This document shows positions 6,537 through 63,203 of a stretch of 64,000 bases of DNA, in pieces (positions within the stretch are counted from its first letter, which is position 1; the number at the start of each line of letters is the position of its first letter). This DNA comes from Isurus oxyrinchus (lineage: Eukaryota), in contig JANJGN010000034.1 in assembly GCA_026770705.1 (NCBI GenBank), positions 4,402,001 to 4,466,000 of the forward strand, read 5' to 3'. A program made the position numbers and the translations under genes. The notes beneath the pieces were generated by a model. The model did not search any database. It worked only from the letters and a program-made list of their open reading frames with translations, and was not told the origin of the DNA.

Positions 6537-6563
6537 AAGGCAGTTTGCAGAAGTGCCATGAAG
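6537..6563 (+). CDS. 27-nt phase-1 microexon (EGSLQKCHE)
   Basis: ttattctttag|AAGGCAGTTTGCAGAAGTGCCATGAAG|gtaatg. Similar to exons 13071 and 14572. Confidence 0.8.
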
Positions 6564-7829
6564 GTAATGATGTGTGACATGGATTACTTAATATGCTTCA
6601 CTGTCATTATCACTCCTGCCCACTGCACCTCTTGCAATCATCTACGGTGTCAAACAATTTTAATAGGATTATAACTGAGATCATAACAAAGGCAGGAACC
6701 ATGTGTTCTGAGGCGAATTCAACATGATCCTTCTTCATTACGTGAGAACATTGCAAACATTTTTTTTTTCCACTGTGCTCGTTATCCAGAGCAGACTGAT
6801 GGCCCTGTCATTGAATTAAGCATTGGACTTTCAATTGGTACCAAAACTCTGTGCCTGCAATCTTCCAGATATTTAACAAGGGGGAATGGATGCTGATGCA
6901 GAATGGATAACGGATAAGCAAAGCAATATTATTGCAAATAGTGTAGCCGCCCAGAGATAAGGCTGTGACGGAAAGCTGGTTATAAATACCATGTATGTTT
7001 GCCTTCAGATGGTTTGCCCACAGCGGAGCAAGGTGATGAGAAATTGATTGGGGCAAATCCCGGGGAGGGGGGCTTGTGTAGAAGCAGCAGAGTGAACAAT
7101 GTCATTGGATTTTATTTTTTCCTGGCTAGGACAACATCCAAGAATACAGGACAAAATTTCTGCATTCCGAACCAGCTGGGCAAGAGTGGGTTTGAAGCTG
7201 GATAAAGAAATGATGGATTTTGCTTCAATATGTTCTAGGAGTTATTGTTGAACCTCAGATATCCTGATTTAAGTTCGCTGATGGTCTCTGAACCTGACCA
7301 TGTTTCCATTGCGTTATTTCCACAGACCACGAAGTTTATTAGCCTCAGTGTGACAAAATATTTTGTCCGCACAAAGCATGAGCAGTGAAGACTCACACCA
7401 ATAATGCAATGCACAAAACAATTTAAGATCTATAGCATGGTGAGGAAAATGTCCTGCAGGATTTTCCATCTGTCTGATTTGTACAAAGCCCATCAACGGC
7501 CCATTGGGTAGTTAGGTTTTTGAGGTCTCTGCCATGTCCAACATTCGTAAAAGTGTGGAGACTACATTAATATTGGACAATGGATAGCCCACCCAAAATG
7601 AATCCTGTTACCTTGCAACCCAGAATACTGATTTAATACTATTCAATATAGCTATTACTGAATCCTCAGCAAATGGAGAATGATAGGAGAATCCTTTACT
7701 AATGTTTGGCTTGATACCTTGTAACTTCTTCGGGTCAGAGTCAATCTTGTCGACTCTCAACGCCACTGAATTTGACTGGAAACCACTAAGGCTGCACAAC
7801 AATTTCAAAATCACGATGCTGTTTTATTA

Positions 7830-8130
7830 GAAGCGAGTGCTCATCAAGGAGCACAAGCGTGGTAATAGTAAGGGGCATCCTCCAAATTAAGACTTTAACG
7901 TTACAACGTCTTAAAAGTCAAGCTTATGGAATGTAGATTTGCGTATACCAGTCAGGTACGCCATGGAAATCTCGAAAATAATGGAAAAACAGCATTAATG
8001 ATGCTTTGAAAAAGCAGGCCGTCTAGGACAGTAGCACAGTCAAGCAATGGTATGGGGTTGGAAATAGCCTGCACTTCTGATGGAACAACTGAGATTTCAA
8101 AGATCTTTTTGGGATCAAAATGGGACATTA
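7830..8130 (+). mobile_element. Very decayed RTE-clade LINE 3' fragment
   Basis: gggcatcctccaaattaagactttaa...cttaaaagtcaagcttatggaatgtagat...tggaaaaacagcatt resembles the RTE C-terminal GRPKLRFKD..LK..W motif. Confidence 0.45.
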
Positions 8131-8914
8131 AGTTGGCAAACAGACTATCTCAAGCTCAGTACTTGCCAGCGGTGGGAAAGAATTGCTAGTTAGGGACCGA
8201 ATTTTCCAGTAGGGGCGGAAAATAAAAAAAATGCCACCCCTCTTCCCAAGAACAGTTCTGCTTCTCTCTGCTTCTATGATAGATACATAGCCTGATTCAT
8301 ATGAAAAGGTGTAATACTCGCAAAAGGAAGCTCTGAGGTAGAACTGGATGTCAGCAACGTTAATGAGAAAAGTGACAAAGGATACTTCGTGTAAAGCTGC
8401 ATGCGCGAGAAATCTGAAGTGGGTAAGCATCAATCCTTCGGGACAACAAATGTAACAAAGTGCGAACAGCAGCTCAAGACATTGCCATAGCTTTGCTGCC
8501 TGCGATTAGATCAACAATGAACTAAGTGTGCGCCGTCCCAGCAGTGCAAATTCCTGGATCGATGATGCTGTTGCCAAGCATGTCAAAGGTGACAGACAGT
8601 GCAGAAGGGCTGGAAGGAGGCCTTGCCTTTGCAATCGATCGGGAGCGTGCCACTACTGACTTTTATAATCTGTCATAATTGAAAATCTGTTGGAACAGAG
8701 TGTAGAATGGATCTCAGGGAAAGATGGAAGAGGCTCCACTGTTTTAAAGAGAAAGTTACGTCTTGAAATGTGACTGTAGTTTCTTTGGCGCAGGAATACA
8801 AAAATATATTTTGGAGATTGGCAGTGATGACAGTTTTAAAGGACAAAATGGGCAACAGCTGAAGAGAGGGGACCATTTAAGATGCTGTCCGGCATGGGTG
8901 TTTGGAAATGAATA

Positions 8915-9590
8915 AATATCAAAACCAAAATAAAGCAAGTGCTGAAAATCTTCCAATAAAAGAGTAAACATCCATCACTATCTTACCAGTTCAAGGATCA
9001 TTGGTGGAGGTGCCAGATTAAAAATATGAAAGGAACAGACAATCTTCAAACCTGGGCATTGCAAGTGAAATAGGTTGGTGGTGTTGGCGGAAATAGAATA
9101 TAATGAACATATTGTTATAGAGTGGAGGGCACGAAACATTAAATGAGAAATGGTTTAATGGTGGATGCTCGAAAAAGAGGCATAATGGGTGTAGTGAGGA
9201 AAAAAAAAATTCCCGTTGAGTTGTGGTTTGGGCTGAAAAGGAAATGCGAAAAAGTAAGCTAAGATACGAAACAAAACCGAAACAAGAAATAAATATGAAA
9301 AACATCTGCTAATTAGTCAATTGAGAAGGCTGTTGAATTCCAAGGCCAAAGATGTATCTCCTTCCCTCGTCCTCTTCTGGAATTGAGATTCACAAGACTA
9401 ATGCAGCATGCCAAAAGCAGAAAGGTAAGGATAGGAGAAAAAGCATTGAATCGTAATCAACAGGAAACCCAGGCAGCAGGAAATGACGTGAAATATCAAC
9501 GGCCTGAAGCTTTCACTTTGTTTCTCCCCGTAAACGCTGCTGGGAATGCACAGATTTACGAGCATTCTTTGCTTACTGTTTCAATTGTAA
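8915..9590. mobile_element. Decayed Penelope-like fragments
   Basis: Terminal-type segments (aaaataaagcaagtgctgaaaatc; tttctccccgtaaacgctgc...gagcattctttgc) resemble the segment at 11600-11745. Confidence 0.4.
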
Positions 9591-11266
9591 AAAAAATCAA
9601 TTCAGTTTGCCAATTATATCATTTAATTAGCTTTTTCAAAAATCAGGTGAAGTGATTTTATCTTAAACTATAGGTCATAGAATTTATAAAAAGAAACAAT
9701 TGCAACATTAAACGAAAGTGAATTTCAGAAGTCTCTGATCTAAATGAACAACAAAGGGCGTTCATTTTCCTGCTGAGATATAACGTGGCTTGGCATCGGG
9801 GCATCAGCGGTTTTAAGACATCATACTATGCATGTGCTCGCCATATCACGTATATGCAGCTGGGACAAGAGAAATCTAAAGCTTCAGCGCAATAATGTAA
9901 GGACAGGTTATAGTCTGGTCGGTCACGAGCAGATTGGCCTTGCCACTGAGCATGAGCTATGGGACTATGTAATATCAGTCATTTAATTCAAATATATGCA
10001 TCAGGGAATACAGTTTTTAGTTACCAATTTTGCGGAATTGAAATCAGCAGTTTTATTACAATGAGCAATATATATTTTAAAGTGTTTCATTTCAAACAAG
10101 CTGAGATTGCACAGAAATGGGAAAGCATAATCATTTATGTGAGCCAAATATGTCCATGTTGTTGTTTATAACACACCTGGGCCTTCGCCAAACCCTTCTT
10201 AACGAGATTTTTTAGCATAACATTACATTCCGTCGTGTCCAAGTTTTCACCTAGCTCCGGATAAATGTTTGTGCGCTTTCACCTGAATTGTACATGTGAT
10301 TGCACATTCCAACATTGCAAATGTACTTGAGTTAATTAATTTGTACAGAATTCCTCACTGCAATAGTTAGGGACTTTCGTATATCTAACCTCCATAATTT
10401 TACTTTCCTGTCGAATGGTGTTGCCCGAATTTCTATCTGGCGAAATCCTGTCTTATGTTTCAAGGCTTTGTGTGCCGTATCCTTCATAGGATTGTTCCTC
10501 GGCTTGCTGATATTCTCCTGTTAGATCCAGCCACTCACACTTTGTACGATCCTTGTACAAATTAGTAGAGATACCTTGCTCTAATTTTTTGCAACGTCGC
10601 CTTGAAAATTTCCTGTGAGGTGAGGCCAAGAACTGTCCACAGCCAATAGAAGTATAGGCGATCAAGTGCAATTTGTGATTTGCCATTACAAAACATGAAA
10701 ACTGCTGGTGCGTTTGCACACCAAGGAAAAAAAAAATATTTTTTGGTGTGAAAAGTTTGTTGCATAAGTTATCGGTCCTCAAGGGCCTTTGGCGATATGG
10801 GAACAGTTGACATTTGCTTTTTCTTTCTCAGAAATATCAAAGCTGACCCAGGATATGATTTTCTCAGGTGAGGGCAGTTTTCTGGAGCACCATAATGGCT
10901 TGAGGTTATTTGGGTTTATCTGATGTTGTGAAACATTCAAAAATAGTTCCAGGATATTTTCGGATATATTCCCTCCAGTTAACCTTTTTAATTCCAGTTT
11001 TACCATATAGATTTGTTTCCAAAAATCTGAAAGTCACCCGACATTACAAGAATCACTATGCTTCACAACAGCAATAATTGGCTATAAAACGAAGTGTTGG
11101 CTACTGAGGCTTTGAACGGTATAGTACAAATGTGTCTTTAGCTTTTCTTTTTAACAGCAAGCAGACCATAACAAACAACCTCACATAGCTAACACCCGCG
11201 CTGAATATGCCTGTTGAAATCAAGTTCATGCTTTAACCTTGTTCTTTCTTTTGTTTTTTCATTTAG

Positions 11267-11293
11267 AGATAAAATTGTGTCAAGGCCTGAAAG
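11267..11293 (+). CDS. 27-nt phase-1 microexon (EIKLCQGLK)
   Basis: ttcttttgttttttcatttag|AGATAAAATTGTGTCAAGGCCTGAAAG|gtaaac. Shows the xxKL pattern. Confidence 0.75.
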
Positions 11294-11599
11294 GTAAACT
11301 AGGGTCAAATATAAAATGTGTATCATTACGTAATTCATAACTATGCATGAGTAAAAAAACCTGCAAATTGCATCCTTCAGAGCACTATATCCTCACGCAC
11401 GCCGACTCATAACAACTCCAAAGCAATCACCGTCATCGCTGCTTAAGTGACCTGCATGGCTGCCGGCCTGGCATCACCCATATTTTTTAAAACTCGCCGC
11501 TGTTTTGAAATCGAGTTAAATTTCACCAAACACAAAACTTTTAGAACTCCTCGAAGATCATGTGATAAAATTGCATAAACTTTAGGACACAGAAAGAAG

Positions 11600-11745
11600 T
11601 CAACTAGTTCTGTTGAAAAGCCATCAGGACTCGAAACGTCAACTCTTTCCATCACTGTCGATGCTGCCAGTCCTGCTGAGTTTCTCCAGGTAATTCTGTT
11701 TTTGTTTTGGATTTTCAGCATCTGCAGTTCTTTGTTTTTATCATT
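11600..11745 (+). mobile_element. Penelope-like terminal fragment
   Basis: ctgttgaaaagccatcaggactcgaaacgtcaactc...gatgctgccagtcctgctgagtttctccagg...cagcatctgcag, a common shark PLE terminal sequence. Confidence 0.6.
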
Positions 11746-12374
11746 GTTTTTATCTTTTTGTTTTTATCTCTGTATTTATTGTTTGTTTGTTTCTGTTCAC
11801 TTGTTTGTCTTTAAACATTAATTTTTCCATAAGGTCAAAATAGAGCAAAGTGCCGGCTTACTAAATAGCTGCAAATCTTACACACTGTTAGAAATATCGG
11901 GTAACCGTTGCTGGTGATTGAGATCCCAAGTGTTGGTACAGCAAAACGTGCAGTTGACAGCCACTGTCATCACTGCGCGTGAGTAGTGTAGGGAGACAAT
12001 GAAAAAGGTAATGAATGCAATGTCGAAAAAAAGGCCTACTTTATCCGGCCTGGAGTCAAGCTTCTTGAGTATTCTTACCAGCCCCATCCTTGTCCCCCAA
12101 ATTTGTGGGATACATTTTTGGTGTGTTTGTTTTCGTTCGGCTGTTTGCCTTTATTTATTGCATTTTCCATCATGACAAAATAGGGCTTGACCATAAGTAC
12201 AGAATAGGGCAGAGTGCCAACTTATTAAATAGCTGCAAAACTGGCATATATCTGCTGCACCAGCAAGGAATTAGTTATGCTGAACATAAATTAAGCAGTA
12301 GCCCTCTTTCGAGCAGTGTTTGATTTACTGAGTACGTTTGGTAATTAGTCCTGTGATGGCTGTTATATTTTAAG

Positions 12375-12410
12375 AGTTAGTGCCACTGAAGGAAAATCTT
12401 CACAACACAG
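12375..12410 (+). pseudogene. Inactivated 36-nt exon (ELVPLKENLHNT), donor GT>TT
   Basis: ttttaag|AGTTAGTGCCACTGAAGGAAAATCTTCACAACACAG|ttaaga. The paralog at 13877 has gtaaga. Confidence 0.75.
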
Positions 12411-13070
12411 TTAAGAATGTATATTAATGATCCATGTCCAACAATGTTTTACGGCCTCCCATTTAGACATCCCACTGCGTATAACAATAAATTTTCTCCT
12501 TCAAATGTTAACTTTTCAATCATATTGGATTGACTGAAAGAATCCTTAAGTTGCAGTTAACTCGACTTAAGAGCAGTTAGTAGAGACAATCATGGTGCAT
12601 GTATTACAATCAGTGTGCAGGGATGTTTCACCTTTAAAATAAGGTTTAAAAAATGTTAATTTATTCTGGGTTATAATAATTATGATAGTTTGCCATGTAT
12701 TTGATCATTATGATTATAATTAAAATTGGCAGTCTTGTTCTTGCTATACAAAACATTGTTGCTTTTGTATCTTCAGTATGATAATGATGGCTACTAATAT
12801 TGTCATTATAATCGGCTGAATGTTGAATTTAACTGTGGATTATAAATTATTAATTGGCGTGAGGTGTTAATAATATTCAGAGCAAAATGGCAACTTTAAA
12901 TTACAATTTAGCATCGTCTACATTATTCATGTGTAATTAATTAATACCCATGCGTTATTGTTTTCACTATGAAGTACAAAATAACATTTAGCGTAGTATT
13001 GACATCTCATTATTATTTCAGCATTGATTTGTTATTTATTATTAACTTACAATTACATCTTAATATTCAG

Positions 13071-13097
13071 AAGACAGCCTGGATAATTGCCAGGAAG
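13071..13097 (+). CDS. 27-nt phase-1 microexon (EDSLDNCQE)
   Basis: catcttaatattcag|AAGACAGCCTGGATAATTGCCAGGAAG|gtatgc. Confidence 0.8.
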
Positions 13098-13876
13098 GTA
13101 TGCATTCCAAACATGACTTATTATTTAAGCTGAGATTATTTGCCTTGAGTTACGGACAACATTTTGTAGCTAGTTACAATTGCCTTGAGGAGATCGCAAT
13201 GACCTGTGATCAACCATTGTTGTACTCTTAGTAGGAAAAACACACAAAGTCCTTTATAAGGGCATTCAATGATATTCTCATTGTCACATTGAAGTTACGA
13301 TAATATAGTTCCACATTGGCGTGGTGTGTTCTTTAGTAAACAGCTTGCAGTCGGAAGTGTTCCCAATATTTTGAAGCCGCTGTCCATCACACTGTTACAA
13401 ATAGCGGGTAACCGTTGCTAGTTAAGAAGATTCCATGTGTTGGTGCAGTGAAACTTGTAGTTGATATGCACTGCCACTACTGAGCGCCGGATGGGTAGGG
13501 ACACAATGAAAATAGTAATGAATGGAATGTCGACAATTAGGGCTACCATATCAAGCTTGGAATCGAGCTTCTTGACTTTTGTGATCTGGCCCAGCCACTC
13601 CACCTCTGTCCCTGAAATTGTTCGGATGCATTTTTTGCATGTTTGTTATATCCTTCTGTTTCTCTTTAAATATTACATTTTCCATATGGACAAAATAGTG
13701 CAAGGGCCCAACTTACTAAATGACCACGGAACTGGCATATATCCACCTGCACTGAAAGGGAATTAGTTATGCCGAACATGGATTAGCTGTCGCCCTCTTT
13801 AGTTCACAGTTTCAATTTCTGAGGAGCTTTGATGATGAATCCTGATGGTGATGACTGACTGCTATTTTAAATTCAG

Positions 13877-13912
13877 AGTTAATGCGATTGAAGGAAAATA
13901 TTCACAACACAG
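13877..13912 (+). CDS. 36-nt phase-1 microexon (ELMRLKENIHNT)
   Basis: ttttaaattcag|AGTTAATGCGATTGAAGGAAAATATTCACAACACAG|gtaaga. Confidence 0.8.
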
Positions 13913-14571
13913 GTAAGAATGTGCAGCAGCGATTTATGTTCAACTTTTTATTAAGGCTGCTCATTACGACATCCTACTGCGTATAAAAATAAATGTTGTC
14001 CTTCGAATGTTAACTTTTTAAGCATATTGGAATGACTGAAAGATTGCCTTAAGTTGCTTTTAATTGGGCTTAACCGCAGGTAGCAGAGAAAATCATGGTG
14101 CAGGGATTGTAATCACACCACTGCGGTAGATCACCTTTAAAACTAGGTAAAAAGAACCACATGTATTTTTAAAAAGTTATATTAATTATGATAGGCTGCA
14201 GATTTTTTGATCATTATTATGATAATCAAAATTGTCTTGTCTTATTCATCCTATTCAAATAATAAATATTTTTTATCATTGGTATAATGAAGGTGGTTAT
14301 TATTGTGGTCATTATTATCGTCAGAATGTTAACTTTAACTGTGACTTGTTAATTATTAAATCCCATGATGTATCAATAGTATTCAGAGCTAAAGGCATAT
14401 TTGCATTAAAGTTGAGCGAAACCTACGTTATTCATGTTTAATTTAGTAATGGATGTTTCCCTTGTCATTATGAAGTATGAATCATTTGGTGTCAGAATGA
14501 AATCTCATCAGTAATTAAGCATTGATTTGCTATTTATTAATAATAATTTTCCATCACATCTTAATATTTAG

Positions 14572-14598
14572 ATGCCAAGCTGCAAAAGTACGAGGAAG
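14572..14598 (+). CDS. 27-nt phase-1 microexon (DAKLQKYEE)
   Basis: catcttaatatttag|ATGCCAAGCTGCAAAAGTACGAGGAAG|gtaggc. Confidence 0.8.
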
Positions 14599-15480
14599 GT
14601 AGGCCTTCTTAGTCTCGATTTAACAAGAACATTTGATAGCTGTTCACAATTGCCTTCAGGAGATGGTAATGACGTGTGATCTTCCATCATTATAGTCTAT
14701 GTAGTAAAACAAACAAGCACTGTTCAAGATAACGGCATTCATGGATATTCTCATCGTAACATTGTAGGAATGATGATATACTTCCAGGTCAGATCGGTGT
14801 GTGATTTAGTGAAGAACTTGCAGTTGTAAGTGTTCCCAATAATTTGATGTCCTTGCCCATCATACTGTAAGATATAATGGGTAACCGTTGTTGGTGAAGG
14901 AGATTACACTTTTTGTTGCATTTGGAGTTCTTAGCCACTGCCTCGACTGTGCGCCAGTGGTATAGGGAGACAGTTACAAAGGCAAACAATGGAATGTCGA
15001 AAAGAAGGCAACTTTATCCTGCCTGGAGTCGAGCTTCTTGAGTTTTGTGACCTTCATCCGCCTCCCACCTGCGACTCTGAAATTGATCGGATGCATTTTT
15101 TATTTGTTTTTTTCACCTGTTTGCCTTTAAGCATTAAATTCTAAATTATACGTCTAAGAAAAAAAGAGTTAATGACAGTTGCAACGTTACTAGTTATCCA
15201 GAAAGCGTATGGCTCAACAGGAAAGCATGCTTTTTGTTTGGCAAAAATGGGGATTTGGCACATTGTTCTTTGAATGATCCGTTAAATTTAGAGGCTATAG
15301 CGAAATGGTTGTTAAATTTCTTGGAAAAATTATTTTTAGAAGGACATTTGACGATTGAGTTATGGTGCTTATTTACACAGCTGTCGAAATTATAGTAGCA
15401 TTGGCAAAGCATATTGTTTGATGAGGATTGGCCTTATCTCCTCAATTAAATTGAAACGTTGTTTCTCCTCTTTTTTGTAG

Positions 15481-15536
15481 TCTCGGAGGAGCATGCAGAA
15501 AAGAAAGTGCCTCAAGAATGGAATCCATCACTTTGA
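15481..15536 (+). other. Exon-like segment without a matching donor; reads through as VSEEHAEKKVPQEWNPSL*
   Basis: Strong acceptor tttctcctcttttttgtag. GGAGCATGC core shared with the 40107 fossil. No GT at +27 or +36. TGA at 15534-15536; AATAAA at 15772. Confidence 0.4.
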
Positions 15537-17758
15537 TAGTGTGCCTTAACACACCGTATTTGCTATATGCCACTGATGAGTGCCATCATCTCTTGTTGGT
15601 TTTACACTCATCCAGGGAAATGATAGCAGCCATCTCTGTGATTGTGGTCAGCCTGTTTTTCAGTTGATGAGATACTCACCATTAAATTTCCTGCCTCTAA
15701 TTGCATTTGCGTGTCCAGTATTTAATGGACGATGAAGATAAGGTCGGAAGTTTGGTGGTGGTGGAATCACCAATAAATTTCAACTGAATGCAAAGGTTGA
15801 AGGGATAGCAGTTAAGTGAAATGGTTATTGATAAACATTGTGTTGTGTTGTGAAAATCTGCAATACGTTCACCTCATAATGAAGACAAGGTTAATGTTGA
15901 AGCATCTGTTTATGAGCCGGCCGAGTGCACTACCATACTGATCCTCACAGTATGTCCAAAAACTGAGATAAGCTCCCTTCATTAGTCGCAACCACTTTCC
16001 TCTGTCCTGTGCATCACTTCAGCAATAGAAAAAATCAGGCATGACTCCAGTAGACTTCAATTGTGCTCGTGCTCTTGTGTACCTCCCTAGACCAATGGTA
16101 GCTGTAAGGTCTCACACCTCAACTCTTCTGTCCAGATCCGTTGTCCAGGCCTCAGTAATGGCAATAATGAGGTCAATAGCTGAGTGTCTCCGTTGGATCC
16201 AAAATTAACAGCAGCAAGTGTGTTATTGTCACTGAGGTCCCTTCCAAAACATTCCCAACAACTTCTTACATCAGAGTGCCTGATCACCGAGGACAGCCCA
16301 ATGATGTAGTAGATAGGAAGAAGAATTTATTCTTTCGTTGCTAAGGAAAACATGTAAACAAATGATGCCTAGTCCTCAGGATGCGTTTTGTTTTCCACGT
16401 CCAATTGGCACATGAAGCTGAAGGAAGTTAAAATGTGTTCAAACTTGTATTTTGCAATGACGTGTCGAACACCGCCAATTTTGGGGGTTCGATGTTTCTG
16501 CAGCCTGTTTATTGTGTTAATCGTTTACTTTTAGAATGCTACTCACGTCTTGATGTGGCTGTACTGCAGTGCTTTCGCCAAACCTATTATTTATGTATTT
16601 ATTTAATTATTTTCCTGTTTTACTCCATCGATCTCAAGCTGTTGCGACTAAAACCTCGCAAATTTGCCACAAGTGTGCATAGGTTATTGAGGAGGCCTGT
16701 CAAGGCCAATTGAGAAATATGTTACCTCGGAAATTTCTGAAGCAGAGTTTGGTATTTGGTGCTCGCTCATTTTTATTTTCCTGTGTGCCATAATGAATAT
16801 GATTCTTAGTCGGTTTATAATCCAAACTTTCTATCCCATTGCACTGGTTATATCTTATTTGTGATTTTTCCATTTCGTACATACATCTGGAATATGTCCT
16901 TATCATTTTCAGTCCAGTATTGGCTTTCAGACTGGTGTTAGGATTTCACTGGTGTGATAATATTGAGAGTCATTTCTCAGGGGTTATGGAGCAAGACTGG
17001 CCACCATAGTTCTTAAACTTCGGAACCTAAAGGGCGCTAAATAAAAAATGAAAAGTCATCATTTAAAGAGACAAAGACATTTGCCTTGGATATTCGTTTC
17101 TTTTGGGATGCATTAAACGCCTCGGCATTTTTCATGCCCTTTGCGATCAGACATAGAAGTTGCAAACATAGGCATTACTGAAGTAGTAAAAGAAAACTGA
17201 AACAAGTTAGCAATCACTGTCCTGATGGAGGATCTGAAAACTGATATGTTATATGAACGAGGTAGACATATCTGAATGCCCTTAATCACTACTAGATGAT
17301 GGAGACACAGTGAACACTTTGTGCGATATGAATCATGATATTTGAATTAAATCTGTGTAAAACGTTGTCTGGCAGTCATGTGTATTGGGGGGAAATTTAA
17401 AAACGTAGCATCGTGATGCGAGACATTGCACACATTGGCCTATTTTGGCTTGCACTTCAACTTGAAAGGAAGTATAAATACTGTAACGCCAGATTTACAA
17501 CCAAAGCAAATGGATTTCTGCTCCAAAGGTCATTCAATGAATTAAAATGCTGGTAGGATTAGTGGACCAAAAATTAAGGAGCCGAAGACACAATTTAAAG
17601 CGTTTTTATTTTGTGTCAAATATCCATCAGTAAAATATACAATGATTAAGATGCCGCAATGCAGATTGCACTTGTGAATCCATCTTGAAGTAATTTAATA
17701 ATATATGGTTTCATCCTTTAATTTCGAGAAGCTGGTGATTTCTGAATGATTTTCACAG

Positions 17759-17794
17759 AAAACGAAGATCTGAAGATTGCTCTGAAAGATGCAA
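17759..17794 (+). CDS. 36-nt phase-1 microexon (ENEDLKIALKDA)
   Basis: gattttcacag|AAAACGAAGATCTGAAGATTGCTCTGAAAGATGCAA|gtgaga. K.ALKD is shared with 56718. Confidence 0.7.
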
Positions 17795-18039
17795 GTGAGA
17801 AAGCTCACCGAAAAGTGCTCACAGCCCCCTTAGTACTTTATTTATAATCAGGAAAGTCAGAAATCAATATGTCACCTTGTCACGCCAAGGTAGAGAAATA
17901 AAAGAGCCTGTGTTTATGCTCAATTTTAAAGATATCTCAAAATGTGGAGGCGAGGAATATCGCACAACATTCTTGCTACTGAACTGTATAGTGTTAACAT
18001 CATATGATAAAAAGTAATGTTCAGCTTCCACTTATATAC

Positions 18040-32120: not shown

Positions 32121-32149
32121 CATATTGCAGCATTACATTAAGCTGCAGA

Positions 32150-51868: not shown

Positions 51869-51895
51869 GTGAAAAGTTGGAATCAAAAGAAGACG
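51869..51895 (+). CDS. 27-nt phase-1 microexon (GEKLESKED)
   Basis: ccttttttttacag|GTGAAAAGTTGGAATCAAAAGAAGACG|gtatgt. Confidence 0.85.
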
Positions 51896-54800
51896 GTATG
51901 TTTGCAATTATTCCTTCATAACTGCAATACAAATCGAGGTTGTTGCATTTTTTCCGAAGGTTGTTCAACAATCTGCTTTGTACAAGGGCTTCGTGAAATG
52001 ATTTGGCATTTGCACAGTCCTGGTTCATGTTTAGTCTGACCAAGTGATAAGCGTCAACATGGGAGCTGAATGCTGAACACCAGCTACTTTGGATTTTAAC
52101 CTCAGATGAGATTCTGGTGCCGTAGTAAATGTGTTATTCACTTCTGCGTGCGCCAAATGACTTTTAAACATTGAAGGCTGTTGCTTTGGTGTCATTTGGG
52201 GCGCAAGAAATTCAACAATATCCAACAAGTTAAAATAGTAATGCCTAAATTTACAAAAAACTAGAACTGACTACCTACTTAGTTTACATTGGTTAATAGA
52301 AACCTCTATCAGGAAAGTAGGACTTTCGAAGCTACTGAGCAGCCTATATGCAAGTAAAGGCCCAAACTAACACTTGACAAGGAAAGTTGACAAGTCCTTA
52401 CCAGCAGTATAACACATCTCTGAAATTAGAACAAAAGTAGGTCCTTCTGAGAAAGGACATTTGACATATTTTCACAGTTCCCTGCTGGTTGTGTTTGACG
52501 CAGGAAGGTAGTGTCGGTGTGCTGGAGAGAGTTGAGCGCAACATAATCACCCTATGGCCCTTCAGTTGGCTGTCTCTACCGATGCGATCTGTCTCCAACT
52601 TTGCATGAAAGTGATGCCTGCATTTGGCACAGTTGAGGCCACAACGTCAGTCGTTCCTGCATAGATTCAATGGTGAGGATGACTGGATGAGGTCAGGACA
52701 TATGAATGAGGTGACGCTGGAAGGTGGCCATGTTCTTGCAACTAGCGGTAATATGAAGGGGCCCAAAACCCATTAGGGCCTCATTTTTGTATTTGTTGCA
52801 GTAAAGTATCGCATCTCCCCACACACATCCACATACGCAGGCCACATAGGGTCGACACACTGCAGTCCGTTGTTGCAACCTTATATCTTATATAATCCAT
52901 TAAGACACAACACTACCTACCACACCCCCAGATCTCCACTTACATGGGCTTTGAACTTGACACTCACTTGGCCCTGGAGTCCGACCCTAGAATCTGCCTG
53001 TAGTTCCACGCTTGGCCACTGTTTATTCTGGCACTGCTGGCATTAAGGAACTCATGCAAATCTGATAACTCCGACAAGTCACTAAGCCAGGATTTCCGTA
53101 GATTTGGGGCAACTCCTGTCTCCAAACAATTCACGCTGATTAGAGACATGAATGGCAGCGAGGAAATAAGCATTAGCGAGGATGTGGCAGGCCAGGCAGA
53201 CATCCGGAAAAAAAAACTAATGCCTATGGGATTCAATTTCCTCAAGCATTCATGGCTTAATTTTCACTGGGGCCATACCCAATGCCATAACTCCACGATG
53301 TTTTTTAGTGCTTCTCCAATTCTGGCAACTTCTATACCGTGTTGCTTTCTTTATTTTTCATTCATGGGATTTGGGCTTCACTGTGTGGGCTAGACTTTAT
53401 TGCAAATCCGTCGTTATCCGTGAGAAGTTAGTGGTGAGCGTCCTTGTTGCACTACTGAAGTCCATGTGGTGAGCGTACCACACAGTGCCGTTAGGAAGAG
53501 AGAAAAATGGTTTAGACCCAGAAACAGTGAAGAAATGGTTATTTGTTTCCAAGTGAAGATGGCGAGTGACTTGGAGGGGAATTTCCAGGTGATGGTATTC
53601 CAAATTATCTGCTGCCATTGCCCTTCTAGGTGATAGTGGTCGTTAGTTTGGTAGGTGATTCAAAAGCGGCTTTGGCGAATTTCTGCAGTTCTTCATGTGG
53701 ATGGTGCAAATTGCTGCTATAGTGCATCGATGGTCATGGGAGTGAACGTTTGTGGGCGTGGTGCAAATCAAGCGGCTGCTTCGTCCGGAACAGTATAAAT
53801 TTTCCTCAGTGCTAGGGATGCTTCAGTCATACCGCCAAGTGGAGTGAAATAAATCGTACACCGGATATGTGCCTGGCATATGGCGGAGACAATTTGTGGT
53901 CTCCGGAGGTGTTTTTCTCCTCGCAGCATTCCTACGCTGTCACCAACGCTTTTAGTCACAATATCTTTATGATTAGTTCAGTTCAGTTTCTGGTCGATGA
54001 CACCTTTCCGTATGTTGATCTTTTTGGATTCAATGATGTTAATGCTATGGAACCTCAACAGCGATGGTAAGACTAATGTTTGATGAAGATAGTCATTGGC
54101 TGGCACTTGTGTGGGGTGAATGTTGCTTACAACTTTTCAACAGAGGCCTGGAAATTGTCCAAGTCATGCTGCATTTCGATATGGAATGTATCCGTGTCTG
54201 CCGAGTTGAGAATGGTGCTTAGCCATGCGCAATCATCAGTGAGCATCCCCACTTCTGTTCTTTTGATGGAATGAACATCGTTCATGAAGCAGTTGAATAT
54301 GTTTGGGCCGAGGACACTAACCTGACGAACAACTGTAATGATGCCCTGAATCTGATATGGCAGATCTCCAACAACCACAGCCATCTTCCTTTCCTCTTGG
54401 CATTGCTCCAAACAGTGGAGGGCTTTCATTTTGAATACTATTGAGGCCAGTTGTTCAGGGGTTCAAGGATACGACACCCGGTCAAGTGCAGCCGAGATAT
54501 CCAGCACATTCATTCCCAATACATTTCTTAAGTTCAGATTTAGCCAAAGTTTCACCCAAGGCGGTAATGATCTAAGAGTTGCGTAGCCCTGGCATAACAC
54601 AAACTGGCATCACTAAGCAGTTTATTGCTAAGCAAGTGCCACTTTTTAACACTGTTGATGACGTATTCCATCAAATTAATGATAACCGATAGTGTGCCAA
54701 TGGGGTGGGAATTGGTCGCGTTGGATTTGTCACACTTCTTTGCTTAAAACATATTCCTGTGCACTTTTCCTAATTGTCTGCTGGAGGCCAGTTTTGTCAC

Positions 54801-56717
54801 TATACTGGAAAAGTTTTACTAGGTGTGCAACAAGACCAGGATCTCAGGTCTTCATTGCATTACCTTATAGTTGCCAGGGCCAATAACCTTTGCAATATTC
54901 AGTGTCTTGATATTGCATGGAATGAATTTAATCAGCTGAAGACTGGCATCCCTGATAACGGGGAACTATAGAGGGGGCTCAGGTGGATCATCCGTTCTGG
55001 CGCTTCTCTCTAAACATTGTAGCTAATGCTTCATACTTACCTTTTGCTCCGGTGTGCTGGCAAGTTCTCTTCATTGAGAATGGGAACCTTTGTGGATCCT
55101 CCTCTTCCATTGAGCTGTTTAAATGTCAACAATATTCCCGTCTCCATGAGGCAGCGCTTCAAGCCTTGAGTTTGATCAATTGGTTGTGGGACAGCTTAGC
55201 CCTGTCTATCACAAGCTGCTTATGCTATTTGGAATTTAATATTCTCCAGTGTTAGAGCTTCTTGAAGTTGATACCTCAATGATAGTCATGCTCGATGCTG
55301 CTCCTGGCATGCAAACCTACATCTTTTACTGAACCCTTTCTTGATGATAATGGTAGATTGTTGCAATGCTGGGCCAAGGCGTTGCAGATCATTTTCGAGT
55401 GCAATTCTGGTGCTGATAGCACACAGCGCCTCGTGGACATGCCGTCTTGACTTGCTATGTCTAGTCACAATCTAGCCAAATTAGCATTGTGCTAGCGCCA
55501 CAAAATATGACGTCAAGCTTCCTTAAATGTGAACACTTGACTTCGTCTCCACAGGGCCTGTGTGGTAGCAACTTCTATCGAAACTGTCATGGCTAGATGC
55601 ATCTGCGGCCGGTAGGTTTTTGAGGATGAGTTCACGTTTGTTTTTTCCTTTTTTTTGCTTCCCCACATTCTGCTGCAGACCCACTCTACCAGCAATGTCA
55701 TTTAGGAAAGCCCAGCTTGGACATTAGTGACACTACAGAAGTAGAACTTGTTGATGGACATTTAATTTCCCCAGCCAGAGTGCAACCCTGCCTCCCTCAG
55801 TGCTTCCTCCAACTGATGATAAACGTGATTCAGACGTAGTAGTCAGCAGGAGAATTCCTTGCCCATGTTTGACCTGATGCCATGAGACTTCATGAGTATC
55901 AGTGTCCATGTTGAGTATTCCAAGGGCGATTCCCTCCAGACTTTACAACACTGTACCAGTACATCCACTGGTGCACAGGACTTACCCAGCGATGACCATG
56001 GGGGCATTATTTGTAATGAATTAGTACATGAGGAGAAGTCTATCAAACTGTTACACGAGCAGTCTTTGAAACAGCTCTCCTAATTCTGGCACTAGCCCCC
56101 AGTTGTTAGTGAGAGGAGTTTCACGGTAGACTGAGCTAAGATTGTCTTTGTCATTTCAGGCGCCTCAGTCGATGCTTGGTAGTTGTAAGGAATTGTAACG
56201 GACTGACCCACCTGACTGACTTGCTAGACAACCAGGATGTGAACCAGATGACTTTTTTACCGCAACAAACAATATCTCCCTTGTCATCTCTACTTACAAT
56301 TCCAGATTGTTGTTGGATTACACTTTCATCAATTGCCGTGGCGGGAGTCGGACCCTTGTCCCCAAATTAGTAACCTGAGCTTCGGGTTTACTACTCCTTG
56401 GACAACACAGCTAGGCATCGCATCCCCCTCGTTTTGCTGCAGCTATGTTAATTCTGAATTCTTGCCAAAGAGCAATTCACTTTGCCATGTGTATCTCACA
56501 TCCTATGCCAATCCTTAAAATCCATTACTTTGATGTATCATTGGCCATATTTACGAAATAACCTCGAGGCTTAATGGTCAAAATGTTGAATCTCCTTCAA
56601 TGATTGACTGTCACTTTAATGGAATTTAGGAACGCTTCATGCAAAATGCACAGAAAACAAGAAATGTAATACCGTTTGACATGGACGTGCTCATAGTTTA
56701 TTTTTTCATAATTTTAG

Positions 56718-56753
56718 AGCTGAAGATGTATAAAGAAGCTTTGAAAGATTTAG
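56718..56753 (+). CDS. 36-nt phase-1 microexon (ELKMYKEALKDL)
   Basis: ttttttcataattttag|AGCTGAAGATGTATAAAGAAGCTTTGAAAGATTTAG|gtgagc. Confidence 0.85.
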
Positions 56754-57089
56754 GTGAGCAAATTCGTTCTTCCCTTTTGAAACACTTGCAACATTATTGT
56801 GCAGTCCATATCATGTTGACTGTCAATTTAAACTTCGCTCATTTCTCAATTAATCTAAGGAAAAATGAATTGCAATGCCGACCGACCCATGCAACACAAG
56901 CTGCTCAGCAATTTCGCCACAGAGCTTCATGCTGAGGAAACGCGAGCAACAAAATGTTAAGGCGGTGACGGTTCCCAACATTCTCTCAGTTACGACAATG
57001 CTGAGAACTCACAATTGTTCTGCAGGATGGCATTTTCGTCTCCGACATTTGCTGTTGAAACTCATTATCAATAAAATTGGTCCTTGCAG

Positions 57090-57116
57090 GAGAAAAGCTG
57101 AAAGCCAAAGATGACG
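57090..57116 (+). CDS. 27-nt phase-1 microexon (GEKLKAKDD)
   Basis: ggtccttgcag|GAGAAAAGCTGAAAGCCAAAGATGACG|gtatgt. Only phase 1 is open. Confidence 0.85.
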
Positions 57117-60100
57117 GTATGTAGTTTTGAATTTCAATTGCTATAAATGCATTATGACGGGTGCTAGTAAGATAAAAAAAAACAGACGGCGCTAAGTAAT
57201 TCAAACTAGTTGGACCTGTTCACTCATTTGCATTATAATATTGTTCCCCATAAGAGGAGGTAGAAAATAATCTTGCAAGAAAAGCATAAACACGACGACA
57301 CTGACATTTAGCTATTTATAGAAATGCTGATGACCGATGACTTGATGACATTTATGCTGACAATCGAAAAAAATAATGTTATGGGATATTGAAAATCTGA
57401 TTTTGGTTAGATAGTGCACCCTGGGCATGGGAATAAGTGTGTTCCCCCTTTCTCGTGATGCACACTTTTCATCTAATGATGCAAATCCTTGTTCTGAGAC
57501 AACAGTGTTTGTATGCCTCTCAGCAGCCAACATATCGCAGTATTGCACCGTTTCCTTTCTATTCTTTAGCTTGCAATTGCAGGAAGTGGAATTTATTGAA
57601 AACAGCTCATCACTTACTAATATAAACTTTGAACTTTAACATTTGCTTTTGAATTTCAATGTACCCAAATTAGAACGATCGTGATTCTGACACACAAATA
57701 CAATCCAACATGAGGTGTGTTTATCACAATAAAATATTATGCCCGGAATTCAGATGCGTAAAATATTCTCGATATAACTATTGGTAGGGAAGAGCTTTTA
57801 AACATATGGGGTCTCGTATTTTACAGATAGATCAGAAGATTATTTTTCCCTCAGAAGGTTTTGAATTTTCCTAAATGCCGTCCCCAGAGGTCGCGAATGA
57901 GGAGCCATTGTAAAGAGCTGGGAAGGAGTTTTGAACTAATACCGACGGTGCCGACATAACAGCTTTCTCGGCAAAGAAGTGTCAGATTGAAGACAACATG
58001 GGAAAGTGTGAGGTAATGCAATATGGTAGGAAGAATAGAGCGATATATTATTTTATAAATGGGGAGAAAATTCAGACATCTTAATGGCATAGGGACTTGG
58101 GAGTCCTGCTCTATGTGTCTCTTAAGGTTAACTTGCAGGTTGAGGGGGTAGTTAGGAAGGCAAATGCAATGTTGGCATTTATTTCGAGAAGACTAGAATG
58201 TAATAGCAGAGAAGTGCTGCTGAGAGTTATAAGGCTTTGGTTGGACCACAATTAGAATGTTGTCAGCAATTTTGGGCCCCGTATCTCAAAACGTATTTAC
58301 TAACCCTGGAGATGGTCCAGAGGAGGTTCACGAGAATGATCCCAGGAATGAAAGGCTTAACAAATGAGGAACGATTGAGGACTCTGGGTCCATACTCGAT
58401 GGAGATTATAAGGACGAGGGGGGATCTGATTGCTACCTACAGAATACTGAAAGGCCTGGATAGAGTGGACTTGGGGAAGATTTTCCATTTCTAGGGGAGA
58501 AAAGGAACAGAGGGCAGAACATCGGAGGATGGGAAAGTCTTTGCGGAGCAGAGAGGAGTAGAAACTTCTTTTACCAGATGGTGGAGAATCTATGGAATTC
58601 CTTGCCACAGAAGGCTTGAGTGTATTGAAGATGAAGAAAGATATGTCCTTGATTGTTGAAGTCAATCAAAATATATGGGGAGCGGGCGGGAGAATGGGAT
58701 GCAGAAACTTATCAGCCTTGACTGAATGGCAGAACAGAATCGATGGGCCGAATGGCAGAATTTCTGCTGCTATGTCTTATGGTCTTCACATGTTGGAGCA
58801 TTACATTAAGCTTCAGAGATTAGAACAGTTGGATCTGGGCTGGCATTTTATGGTAAAATAAGGGCAATAATGAGAGAATGAAAGCAGAACTAGCTAATCT
58901 GAACCGCTACGTTTTATTAATGGTTACATAAATAAAGATACAGTGGCAGGAGTTTAAGGAGATATTTTAGAATATGCACATTTCAACGAGAATGGACAAT
59001 TGTTGTTTTTTGGAAATCATCTAAAACAATTCATTGCATGTGTTGGAAGAGATAACTAAAGTACTGCACAAAGCGAACAACACATTTGGATTTCCAAAAG
59101 GTATTTGATTAGGTGCCACGTGAAAGCTTATTGCGAGTTATAAACGCTAATGATGTACAGGTTAATGCATTAGTATAGGGCGATGATTGGCAAGCTAATT
59201 AGAAACAGAGGGTTGACATGAGAGGAACTATTTCTGATTGGCAGGTTTCACAGACTGGTTTGCCAGAGGTAAAGAGTTGAGTGACACACAGATCTTTGCT
59301 GTGGTCTCAGGTTTTACAATTTATACAAATGTCATGGATGAAGGGACAAAAAGTACAGAGATTAATTTGCTGATAACACGCAGGTATGTTGGAAAGGAAA
59401 ACGTGAGAATGGCATAAGGAGGCTCAAATTAATATAGATAAGTTATTGATTTGGCAAGATCTGGCTAAAAAAGCATGAAACCTAAAAATATGGAATTGAC
59501 CTTTTGGAAAAAAAATTAAGAAAAGATGCATATCATCTAAATTAAGATACATTGTAATGCTCTGAGTTGCAGTGGGGTCCACGTGTCCAATTGCATGAAT
59601 CGCAAATCTAGTATGAGTGTTCTAAATTTAATTAGAAACCATGCAGAATGTTAGCGTTTATTGCACAGAGAAATGAATACAAAAGTAATGAGTTTATGCT
59701 TCATCTGTGCAAGGCATCTCTGAGACCGCATCTGGGGTAGGGAATGTTTTCTGATTAAAGGTACAATGTAAAAGCATTGGATGCATTTGGGAGAAGGTTT
59801 ACTAGATTCATAGCTGGAATGAAAGTGTAGCCTTATGATGAAATGTTGGAGAGGCTAGCCATGTATCTGGAAGAGCCGAGAAGAGCAGAGTGCGTCTTGT
59901 TTGAACCATTTACAATCCGGGGGTTCTTGATAAGGTGGATGCGGAGACGTTGTTACCTCTATGGAAGGATCTATAACTGGGGTATACTGTTTCAAACTCA
60001 AGTGGTTGCCGACCTACGGTAGAAATGGAAACATTCTTATATTATTTTCTCTCTCAGCCATGAGACTTTTCAGTGAAATATGATGGAAGCAGGCTATTTG

Positions 60101-61727
60101 ATTTTTTTTTGAGGCATAAGATAGATTAGCCATATATTGAAAAGTTATGTTTTGTAGGTGAGAATGTGGAGTTCGAGCTTTCCATCAGTTTGGCCATGAT
60201 CTTATTAAATGGCATAGCCAGTCTGAAGAGCGGCCTGGCCCACTGCTGCTAATAATCCGTATGCTTGTATTAAACTCATCACAAAGTTTGTTCAAGTGGA
60301 GTGAAAGAATGATGCGATTTCCAGAAATTTTGATTCCTTGATTAAGGATGCTTGATGAGATCTGCACCTCCTAACCAGAAAGCAAACACGTCAAGTTGAT
60401 TGTAAAGGGCTCAGTGTAGCACATAGCTGTTACTATGTTCCCAATCCATGTAGGGCATAATTATAATTGAAGAATATCTTGCTGCTTGCAGATGTTGTTT
60501 AAAAAAAAAGAAACATATTGTCTAGCACGGTTTACAACAGAATCGTTCTGTTCAATAATCGGTGTGGAATTTCTGGCTAAATATTAGGAAGATTAGGAAG
60601 ACGCCAAAATTAACTCCTGACCACCTAGAGACAAGCTAATCCCAGAGGAGGAATATCCGGATCACTTTCACCAACTATCAGTGTGCAAGTGAAATGTTTA
60701 TGGTGCCGAAAACGGCGGAGGGGGAGGAAATATGTCACCTATCATCTATGAAATAATACTCGTTTTTTCATCTTCAGGACAGACACATTTTTGCGGAATG
60801 AGCAACACAATGGAAATGCTAAATCATAAGAAATATTAACATTGGCAGGCCATTCAGCAATTTGAGACTGCTATCTTTAAATAAGTTCATTGAGAAAAGT
60901 TTTATCTGCTTAACACAATTTTCCTCCACTGTCTCAGACCACTTGGCTAACTTGAATAATAAAGCTGGTTATAACGGAGCTTAAGTGCATTAATGGCATG
61001 AATTCACCGCTCTTTGTGGAATAATATTTCAAACCTCTCAGAGCGCATATTAACATGAATATATTCCTTAAATATGAATAAATCATCTTTAGCATTTCAA
61101 CAAATATGTGACACGACCTAGGTAGACAGTGGGCGAGTGAAGGCAACTTTTTGTGAAAACATACAGTTCCTCAAGAAAAAGTAACATAGTAAACAGCAAT
61201 GTCTTACAATTCTGCATATTGCAGAACAATCAAGAAAATTAAGGAACAACCAAACGAGCCGTTGCATAAAACAGCACAGGAGGATGCATTTCACAAATCA
61301 GTGCTTTGTAAGGCCTTTTGAAGAACAATCTGATTGACAGAATTATATTTGGGTGAACAAAGGAACACTTCTTGTCTTGGGCGTTGATATAACTTTCCCT
61401 GAAAATTAAACATCCGCTTAAACACATTGCCCTGATTATTTTCAACCATTGCAATAATTGTCTTGGATATTCCTTTGTGCATACTGAAGCCTTCGTTTCC
61501 AACCTCATGAAACTGAAAAGCTTGAAGTCTAACTCTCAGGTTAGATCGAGGTTCCGGACGCTTTGTCCAGAGAATGTCATTACAGAAGCGATTAGCTTGT
61601 TTATTTTTTTCTTTCCTGTCATCTCATTTCATTTTTTTTCTACACTAAATATCTAGACGGTGAAGCATGTATTGGAGAATTTAATCGCAATAAATTTTCC
61701 TGATTTTTTTTTTTTGCTATCACGCAG

Positions 61728-61763
61728 AACTCGATGCATGCAAACAATCTTCAAAGGATCCAG
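61728..61763 (+). CDS. 36-nt phase-1 microexon (ELDACKQSSKDP)
   Basis: ttttttttgctatcacgcag|AACTCGATGCATGCAAACAATCTTCAAAGGATCCAG|gtatga. Confidence 0.8.
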
Positions 61764-63176
61764 GTATGATTGAGATTTATTTGCATTTGTGCATCACACT
61801 CCGTTATTCCATAATTAAACGAAAATAAAGAAACATTTCAGTGTTCACGTGTCTCAAAGTGGGAATAAACAAATAATGTTTTTTTTTCAAAACAGCAGGA
61901 TGTAAGTACAGGGTCACCCATGACTGACATAATGAGCATTAAGTTCCGTGGAGTATGCTGACTATTGATTTTCTCCAAGGGAATATGCGTACAGCAGGAA
62001 AGGTCTATAGTTGTCGCTCATTCCAAATAGCTACTTGGAAGAGAACTGAAAACCTGGTGCAGTGTGTGAAAGAAAATCTAACCGCATTGCACCATATTAG
62101 CGTTTTTTTTCGAGGCGACACACTCTGTTCGAACACAACGTAGGAATGGGATAAGAAAAGGCAAATTATTCTATCAAACTTTCAATAAGATCATGAATGA
62201 GTTCTACTCAGCTACTTGTATCGCTTTAGTTAAGTCAGACTTAAAAACTGGCCATCCATAAAAGAATGATAACATCACTGTCACGACTTTAAATTACTGT
62301 ACAGGGTTCAAGGTTCTGCGCGCTCTGTGACGGACTCTTCCATGGGCCACGTAGACCTACTGAGAAGACTTTCGTTTTTCTCCCTCATATCAACTCAAAA
62401 CGCTTTCGACACAAGCAATTTAATGTTCATCATCCCGACTCGGCCATCAGTGGATTTGTTTTAAGCCTAAGTAAGTGATCAAGCTCTCTTTCACATTTTT
62501 TTGATTCATTCATGGGATGTTGGATTAGCTGGCTCAGCCAGCATTAACTTCCCTTGTTCAGGGGGTAGCTAAGAATAAACAAATTTGCTGTGAGCCTGGA
62601 GTCAAATGTGGACCAAATCAGTTCAAACCAGGCAAGGCCAAATCATCAGTGACATTAGTGAATCAAGTGGATTTCCTCCCTGAAAATCGGCATTGGTTTT
62701 GTGATTATCATCAGGCATGTAATTCCAGACTTTTTTTGAATTCACATTTCACCATCTGCCACAGTGAAATGCGAACCCACGTGTGCAGAGCATTACCCTG
62801 AGTCTCTATAGGACTTGCTCAGTAAAAATACCATTCCATCGCCGCCTCCCTCAAATTTTAATCGGATCATTCATTTTCGTCCTGAATTCAAATGATTTAA
62901 TTTATCATCTTGGAAACATTATCCCCACTGTACCATTTTAAACAAAGCTATCGTTGCAGTGAGTCTTCATTTCCTGTTTTTCAAGACGGCTATATCCTTA
63001 ATTAACAGTGGCGCCCTTCAGTGAAAATAAAATTCAAAACAGGGTTCAACAGTTAATATATCTAACTACAAAATTTATGTGAGAGAGCTCAACTAAACAC
63101 CATGTGCTTTACAAGTCCAAATCTTAATGACAATGTGTGTTGTTTTTTTTTTTCTATTTTGAATGCAATGATACAG

Positions 63177-63203
63177 AACGAAATGATGCTGCAAGAGAAG
63201 AGG
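63177..63203 (+). CDS. 27-nt phase-1 microexon (ERNDAAREE)
   Basis: gcaatgatacag|AACGAAATGATGCTGCAAGAGAAGAGG|gtaatc. Confidence 0.8.

Follow-up and report, generated by a model that had tools for sequence, protein, structure and literature searches.

In the parts of PMC4046983 that deal with them, chicken BG genes are described as having tails of 13–36 exons of 21 (sometimes 24) nucleotides (nt) after an immunoglobulin variable (IgV) and a transmembrane exon, with no B30.2 domain described, and butyrophilins as having heptad repeats, a few in number, before a B30.2 domain. Titin (connectin), which is composed of Ig, Fn3 and PEVK parts, is given 300 exons in 238 kb in the elephant shark and 363 in human in the relevant sections of PMC12241362, and enterophilin-1, to which we return below, is assigned a SNX1/EGFR role in the portion of PMC13749957 that treats it. 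Here we describe an array of phase-1 microexons in a 64,000-nt stretch of the 4.98-Gb Isurus oxyrinchus genome (contig JANJGN010000034.1, hereafter C34, positions 4402001–4466000, plus strand), which we call the window, and the much larger gene of which the window is probably the interior. The feature is real and larger than first noted, and its building plan has known relatives. We favor the reading, with a probability of roughly 0.55, that the product is a soluble cytosolic dimeric coiled-coil rod presenting two B30.2 heads.

Microexons were called with a model that scores splice sites and content, trained on exons that exclude window coordinates 1–90000 (the window and its duplicate). This model finds 21 phase-1 segments on the plus strand between 6537 and 63203, twelve of 27 nt and nine of 36 nt, and none on the minus strand of the same stretch; in 40 dinucleotide-preserving shuffles, 37 contain no match and three contain one each. 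An earlier scan showed length peaks at 27 and 36 nt, on the plus strand only. The first-pass annotation had reported 19 segments (twelve of 27 nt and seven of 36 nt); the set is real and the 27-nt count stands, whereas the 36-nt count was short by two. It had also proposed that matches in equal number on the minus strand or in shuffles would discredit the array, and with zero on the minus strand and at most one per shuffle the array holds. The final base is G in 20 of the 21 exons, and when joined they contain no stops in 215 codons of phase 1, compared to 20 and 14 stops in the other frames. The exons as called with the trained model, and the relics lying among them, are:

6537..6563, plus strand, 27-nt phase-1 microexon
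10832..10867, plus strand, 36-nt phase-1 microexon
11267..11293, plus strand, 27-nt phase-1 microexon
12375..12410, plus strand, relic 36-nt exon, donor GT lost, tandem copy of 13877
13071..13097, plus strand, 27-nt phase-1 microexon
13877..13912, plus strand, 36-nt phase-1 microexon
14572..14598, plus strand, 27-nt phase-1 microexon
17759..17794, plus strand, 36-nt phase-1 microexon, the only one with a final A
20641..20667, plus strand, relic 27-nt exon, donor lost, copy of 47319
24195..24230, plus strand, probable relic 36-nt exon, both splice sites lost, weak score, at the duplicate position of 50872
25202..25228, plus strand, 27-nt phase-1 microexon
30010..30045, plus strand, 36-nt phase-1 microexon
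30410..30436, plus strand, 27-nt phase-1 microexon
35086..35121, plus strand, 36-nt phase-1 microexon
36510..36536, plus strand, 27-nt phase-1 microexon
38848..38883, plus strand, 36-nt phase-1 microexon
39312..39338, plus strand, 27-nt phase-1 microexon
41401..41436, plus strand, 36-nt phase-1 microexon
42480..42506, plus strand, relic 27-nt exon, donor lost, copy of the intact exon at 69221
47319..47345, plus strand, 27-nt phase-1 microexon, the weakest call in the window
50872..50907, plus strand, relic 36-nt exon, both splice sites lost
51869..51895, plus strand, 27-nt phase-1 microexon
56718..56753, plus strand, 36-nt phase-1 microexon
57090..57116, plus strand, 27-nt phase-1 microexon
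61728..61763, plus strand, 36-nt phase-1 microexon
63177..63203, plus strand, 27-nt phase-1 microexon

The weakly scoring exon at 47319 is the one whose duplicate, at 20641, is without a donor.

The array extends far to either side. A model-free scan of 814 kb, with generic splice scores and no frame filter, gives 25, 45 and 66 plus-strand candidates of 21, 27 and 36 nt, and 8, 5 and 7 on the minus strand, with 1–15 candidates at every other length from 9 to 60 nt on either strand; phase 1 is open in 23 of the 25, 43 of the 45 and 64 of the 66 plus-strand candidates, respectively. In the trained model the array comprises 225 exons without overlap (95 of 27 nt, 91 of 36 nt and 39 of 21 nt; 2,220 codons) over about 800 kb, window coordinates −391734 to 412277; the gaps between called exons have a median of 2.0 kb and reach 21.7 kb. 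A B30.2 exon begins 2.2 kb past the last microexon in the same strand and phase, and it is the only one in C34:3.90–4.82 Mb. The larger features are:

1..64000 of the window, plus strand, probable interior of one gene, the exon array running past both edges
C34:4816507–4817027, plus strand, terminal B30.2 (PRY-SPRY) exon with an intact frame and a phase-1 acceptor, 350 kb downstream of the window
C34:4005537–4005647, plus strand, candidate first coding exon of 111 nt, its ATG in strong context and its donor in phase 1, 396 kb upstream of the window

We are confident that the microexons form the stalk of this 4.82-Mb B30.2 gene, and the whole is probably one gene of ~810 kb and ~225 exons that would be spliced into a single messenger RNA. 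The search of the flanks for a B30.2 exon that the first-pass annotation advised was thus successful at the 3′ end. Its view of the window as the repetitive middle of a chondrichthyan gene with phase-1 heptad microexons is supported; its sense of scale was too small, the window being only ~8% of the gene.

The 21-nt exons lie mostly in one block, at about −332 to −215 kb in window coordinates. This shift of exon style along the array (36/27, then the 21-nt block, then 36/27 again), the long gaps between some called exons, and the ease with which a short terminal exon would escape the scans could be read as two or more tandem genes, only the last of which has a B30.2 exon, with headless tails upstream like the BG-derived zipper protein. 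We regard this as highly unlikely; strand, phase and register are continuous throughout, and the next plus-strand paralogue likewise has 21-nt exons upstream and 36/27 exons further down, suggesting one conserved plan for a single gene. Three related 45–48-nt phase-1 exon candidates with tryptophan lie in the 21-nt block outside the model (−293962, −286630 and −282946) and could be hinges in the rod, and a 27-nt exon-like segment with a GC donor at 388324, missed by the scan, is possibly a working GC-AG exon.

The terminal exon matches the SPRY profile PF00622 at 53.6 bits (cut-off 26.3) and is predicted to adopt a B30.2 fold (predicted local distance difference test score, 85.6), with template modelling (TM) scores of 0.71–0.79 to the domains of TRIM7, TRIM10, TRIM21 and BTN3A1, that of TRIM7 being the best fold match (0.76–0.79). 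The Pfam PRY profile gives no match, so the PRY half is divergent, and the ESM Atlas returns generic SPRY clusters only. By phmmer the best PDB sequence match is the BTN3A1 B30.2 domain (E 2e-20). This 3′ exon links the gene to the butyrophilin/BG/TRIM B30.2 superfamily.

At the other end, the candidate start exon encodes 27 mostly polar residues and no signal peptide, and the gene probably starts there (C34:4005537). Microexons of an opposite-strand paralogue reach C34:3974961 and those of this gene begin at 4010266, leaving a 35-kb head-to-head gap that may hold a shared promoter of the two paralogues. No CpG island is evident in 1-kb bins of C34:3975000–4010000. No Pfam match is present among 150 reading frames of the gap (the longest 150 of the 158 of at least 62 residues). 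Profiles built from retrieved proteins were run over 18,759 reading frames in 921 kb: the Ig profile has no matches (positive control E 1e-70), and the RING/B-box profile has none on the plus strand (positive control E 8e-27) and one weak match on the minus strand (E 0.004). The genome-wide searches scored 150 of 3,319 V-set and 150 of 308 SPRY candidates and so cannot exclude Ig exons, for which the local profile search was used instead. No convincing signal-peptide or transmembrane exon was found at the 5′ end, and short-peptide tblastn with skate and chimaera N-termini gave chance matches only. Of the signal-peptide, IgV and transmembrane exons for which the first-pass annotation proposed a search of the flanks, none was convincingly found, nor was any IgV, IgC or RING exon in the 921 kb or the single IgV plus transmembrane exon of BG genes; with no Ig exon and no convincing 5′ signal or transmembrane exon, the gene is most probably not a receptor of BG, butyrophilin or Skint type. 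A true butyrophilin or BG receptor with its Ig and transmembrane exons further upstream would fit both the BTN3A1 match and the placing of heptad repeats before B30.2, which is the butyrophilin plan as given in the relevant parts of PMC4046983. This reading is largely refuted and we give it almost no weight: besides the empty Ig and gap searches, the opposite-strand paralogue begins within 35 kb upstream, butyrophilin IgC exons lie on another contig, C21, and no family model has Ig domains.

The exons have a simple relationship to the heptad. A 21-nt profile fits best at offsets 0 and 6, and on these offsets, the sole basis of the 21+15 and 6+21 reading, a 36-nt exon starts with its heptad and adds 15 nt, and a 27-nt exon has 6 nt ahead of its heptad. 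A pair of the two totals 63 nt and encodes exactly three in-register heptads, and the two lengths alternate in 149 of 178 neighboring pairs (shuffles, mean 93 of 185, maximum 120). With the register assigned purely from exon position, hydrophobic residues make up 84% of position a, 47% of d and 6–14% of the other five; the register is kept at 188 of 224 junctions, and a period of 3.5 is the strongest of ten tested in all eight alternating runs. The rod has five prolines in 2,220 residues and is balanced in charge (531 K+R versus 532 D+E). By its translated sequence the array product is a canonical coiled coil, and analogy with BG and butyrophilin tails points to a parallel dimer. Relic internal splice sites are not enriched as an origin of the two longer classes: AG ends at +6 in 15 of 95 exons, and GT starts at +22 in none of 91.

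We propose that the 21-, 27- and 36-nt phase-1 exons are spliced to encode an α-helical rod of up to ~2,200 residues (~330 nm long, taking the textbook rise per residue) with a B30.2 domain at its C-terminus and no Ig, transmembrane or RING/B-box part. The protein would probably be cytosolic and a parallel homodimer, its rod serving as a spacer or scaffold that holds two B30.2 binding heads, in the manner of the soluble BG tail. Tandem duplication of 36+27 pairs would lengthen the rod in steps of three heptads, and exons that lose their splice sites would shorten it; all exons being symmetric and divisible by three, gain, loss or skipping of exons alters the length of the rod and leaves the frame intact.

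Related genes are present nearby. A genome search with a nearby SPRY exon identifies five related B30.2 exons on C34, two on the minus strand (2.71 and 3.47 Mb) and three on the plus strand (4.82, 6.40 and 7.50 Mb), and microexons of the same kind occur on the matching strand in sampled stretches at 3.05, 3.30, 3.64 and 3.92–3.97 Mb (minus) and at 5.16, 5.55, 6.00 and 7.15 Mb (plus); none were found in the stretches sampled at 3.78, 4.90, 5.02 and 6.75 Mb, and that at 3.90 Mb has a weak one. Together these indicate about five such genes across ~2.7–7.5 Mb (~4.8 Mb) of C34, among which the 4.82-Mb gene alone was read end to end. All five B30.2 exons are intact and share 40–59% identity, except for the 6.40 and 7.50 Mb copies, a recent duplication with 92% identical B30.2 domains (non-synonymous differences per site, pN, 0.042 versus synonymous, pS, 0.088) and the same last 27-nt exon. 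Two further members, with unread stalks, lie amid TRIM and butyrophilin genes on C21 (89722233 and 91348269), and one is nearly identical to a Cetorhinus RefSeq model. C21 is the contig to which the major histocompatibility complex (MHC) class I and butyrophilin IgC exons map, and this gene is on C34; the MHC contig thus carries two members but not the giant cluster, such that this gene is not MHC-linked and five of the seven copies lie elsewhere. C21 also has a large SPRY-exon cluster at 82–118 Mb (most of the 150 scored) that overlaps the MHC class I and butyrophilin IgC exons.

Only the B30.2 exon served to find relatives in other species, so that proteins consisting of the stalk alone would escape. 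Among 1.84 billion representatives, the nearest single-domain relatives are chondrichthyan RefSeq models (Scyliorhinus, Leucoraja, Narcine, Cetorhinus and Callorhinchus) named TRIM39-, TRIM58-, TRIM69-, A33- or nuclear-pore-anchor-like. Most are 175–460 residues long, SPRY is the only Pfam domain above cut-off in those scanned, and no Ig, RING or B-box is present in the family models. The mis-annotation suspected at first pass is therefore real for genes of this kind, whose RefSeq models are fragmentary and misnamed. The skate model XP_055510696 has a B30.2 domain 49–50% identical to that of this gene, joined to peptides that match its last microexons, and the rod-plus-SPRY build is also seen in Callorhinchus XP_042192744 (1,697 residues) and Scyliorhinus XP_038671249 (945 residues). 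Exon profiles of 7, 9 and 12 residues tile the stalk of the 1,697-residue Callorhinchus model with a score of 156, compared to 35 ± 9 in 30 shuffles; twelve TRIM coiled coils score 2–15 on the same tiling, although these are far shorter, and generic heptads too are lost on shuffling. RefSeq isoforms of three relatives, for which an RNA basis is assumed, differ by an internal 9-residue cassette, and two also differ by 6 or 7 residues.

The five C34 domains, the two on C21 and the RefSeq relatives form one long-stemmed clade (Shimodaira–Hasegawa-like approximate likelihood ratio test, 100) apart from the sampled TRIM and butyrophilin domains. All trees are quick trees, a motif filter having dropped 10 of 13 comparison loci in one and 3 in another, and they give the clade no clear sister group. 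A single-sequence search for long relatives of the B30.2 domain found none among 467 candidates, and in a profile search of 7,996 candidates of 388–2,000 residues, where fused TRIM models took up much of the output, one of the 35 rows was a further family member. The full-text literature searched, of which subscription journals and supplements were not part, contains no description of the family or of the 36+27 design and no mention of six RefSeq accessions. PMC12841164 mentions chondrichthyan butyrophilins and, in the parts covered, not this family; a term search of PMC10751288 gives no B30.2, butyrophilin or TRIM. This appears to be an undescribed gene family of sharks, rays, skates and chimaeras.

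Several observations weigh against a soluble, cytosolic rod made by a fully working gene, and two of them concern the compartment. First, cysteine occupies 58 of 316 d positions, where it is the third commonest residue, and is outside the top five at every other position; this suits an oxidising compartment better than the cytosol, and the cysteines would pair across a parallel dimer. Secondly, two of seven RefSeq models checked start with a signal-peptide-like stretch, which may be intron read-through; the skate and chimaera models start hydrophobic, and the skate stretch ends exactly where a 9-residue exon unit starts. The same gene could then encode a disulfide-cross-linked structural rod that is secreted, anchored in the membrane through a short first exon that we did not find, or cross-linked in a maturing cell such as sperm, with the B30.2 head organizing or anchoring the fiber. 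We see this as possible, though unlikely. In the window itself (56681–56753) an intronic ATG read through a polypyrimidine tract into a microexon gives a similar hydrophobic start that mimics a signal peptide, and such read-through probably gives rise to false N-termini where genes of this family are modelled automatically. Furthermore, the best start exon lacks a signal peptide, and a strongly hydrophobic N-terminus is absent in five of the seven models. The maximum 19-residue hydropathy in seven family stalks is 1.6.

The remaining difficulties for the soluble-rod reading concern whether the gene is maintained. On the favorable side, phase 1 is open in 223 of the 225 exons, whereas the other phases are open in 64 and 137 and shuffling within exons leaves a mean of 119 open, and the two stop-bearing exons are to be set against ~41 nonsense changes expected from nearest-paralogue divergence. 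This depletion is partly circular, as the 225-exon model scores content; the model-free counts are safer and agree. The window also contains a 1.5-kb tandem duplication and the first unit of a larger one:

Unit 1 18188..44854 and unit 2 44852–71614 (beyond the window end), plus strand, tandem duplication of 26.7 kb, 85% identical

Within duplicated exons 26 of 279 bases differ, compared to 787 of 5,265 in the flanks (Fisher p 0.009), yet the ratio of non-synonymous to synonymous change (dN/dS) over nine exon pairs of the window duplication is 0.94 (5 synonymous and 19 non-synonymous among 24 changes). Frame and DNA are thus kept while residues drift, and this duplication gives no evidence of amino-acid constraint on the rod. 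Breaks in the 27/36 alternation in the window coincide with the splice-dead relics at 12375, 20641, 42480, 50872 and probably 24195. Exon death is common, with 13 splice-dead relic rows in 814 kb (one overlapping a live 21-nt exon and one with a GC donor) and four more in the window. The 27-nt exon at window coordinate 399745 has a stop, whereas the matching peptide of the skate model is intact; if included it would remove the B30.2 head, and it is the chief argument against the gene being fully functional in this genome. Simply joining all 225 exons gives six stops. The acceptors of the two stop-bearing exons are weak (7th and 16th percentile, the latter that of 399745), and both exons may be skipped in splicing. 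A 7.4-kb tandem duplication of 99.2% identity at window coordinates 223475–238371, with one 27-nt and one 36-nt exon, is either very recent or an assembly artefact.

The dN/dS of 0.94, the many relics, the late stop and the shortness of most relatives' models are what would be seen if the gene were decaying in this lineage, or if few exons were used and the products were short (300–900 residues) like most RefSeq models. We think this unlikely, since old duplicates contain far fewer stops than expected, duplicated exons have changed less than the flanks, the five C34 B30.2 exons are intact at 40–59% identity with an excess of pS over pN in the 92% pair, and two models are long. Also on the negative side for a working soluble rod, no transcript was seen. 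Contigs of four RNA runs aligned to window 25000–44900 cover repeat-like stretches only, and none of the 13 joints listed there falls at an exon boundary, which is uninformative on expression either way. The repeat-like stretches of the window that are densely covered by these contigs (26300–29600, 31000–33000, 35600–36300 and 43000–44300) resemble decayed LINE-type (long interspersed nuclear element) sequences. Reading frames at 47969–50503, with a duplicate near 21600–23800, are present as well, which may be fragments of a Penelope-like retroelement, and a Pfam scan of 11 window reading frames gives no match.

If these genes are expressed as proposed, their exon number is near that of titin and almost wholly made up of 21–36-nt exons, in about five copies over 4.8 Mb that seem to have been missed or cut into misnamed fragments in the annotations examined. 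They extend the heptad-exon plan of BG and butyrophilin genes several-fold, show how a three-heptad unit of two exons can arise in a simple way from a one-heptad exon, and preserve a legible history of exons arising by duplication and dying as splice sites are lost. They also raise the questions of how the spliceosome handles 200 consecutive microexons, whether splicing controls rod length, and what ligand a chondrichthyan-only B30.2 clade binds; apparent gene deserts of other large vertebrate genomes may hide similar genes. We speculate, tentatively and against the odds, that this is a private cartilaginous-fish family of giant rods, retained in chimaeras and sharks alike, with length set by splicing and with cysteine cross-links, acting as B30.2-tipped rulers of 100–330 nm or as a lineage-specific filament. 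Each 36+27 pair would add three heptads and single-exon skips would insert register breaks, possible sites being sperm, egg investments or epithelia, from a ~4.8-Mb cluster unseen by gene finders.

Comparison with the described systems places the gene between several of them. Like the class IV TRIM proteins (TRIM39, TRIM58, TRIM69 and A33) it has a coiled coil followed by PRY-SPRY, with TRIM7 as the best fold match; it differs in that no RING or B-box was found in the locus (plus strand) or the family models, and the name 'E3 ubiquitin ligase' for its relatives is thus without support. Triadin, TSBP1 and Skint proteins have a membrane anchor and no known B30.2 domain; this gene ends in a B30.2 exon and no transmembrane exon was found for it, which argues against that type. 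Titin is alike in its very many exons and its growth by multi-exon tandem duplication, whereas here almost all exons are 21–36 nt, under 1% of the span is coding, and the sequence is unrelated. Chicken BG genes and the BG-derived soluble zipper protein, as far as the source describes them, share the long coiled-coil tail, the tandem heptad microexons in a number that varies among paralogues, and the multigene cluster; in contrast, this gene has ~225 exons, mostly in 36+27 pairs (39 are of 21 nt and 186 of 27 or 36 nt), and a B30.2 head, with no Ig or transmembrane exon found. Butyrophilins likewise have heptad microexons and then a terminal B30.2 exon, that of BTN3A1 being the best PDB sequence match; no IgV, IgC or transmembrane part was found here, the heptads number in the hundreds rather than a few, and the B30.2 domain belongs to a separate long-branched clade. 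Enterophilin-1, a soluble and far shorter rodent protein with an extended leucine zipper and a C-terminal B30.2 domain, is the closest architectural analogue, set beside this gene by domain plan alone, and convergence from a butyrophilin tail is as likely an explanation of that likeness as descent.

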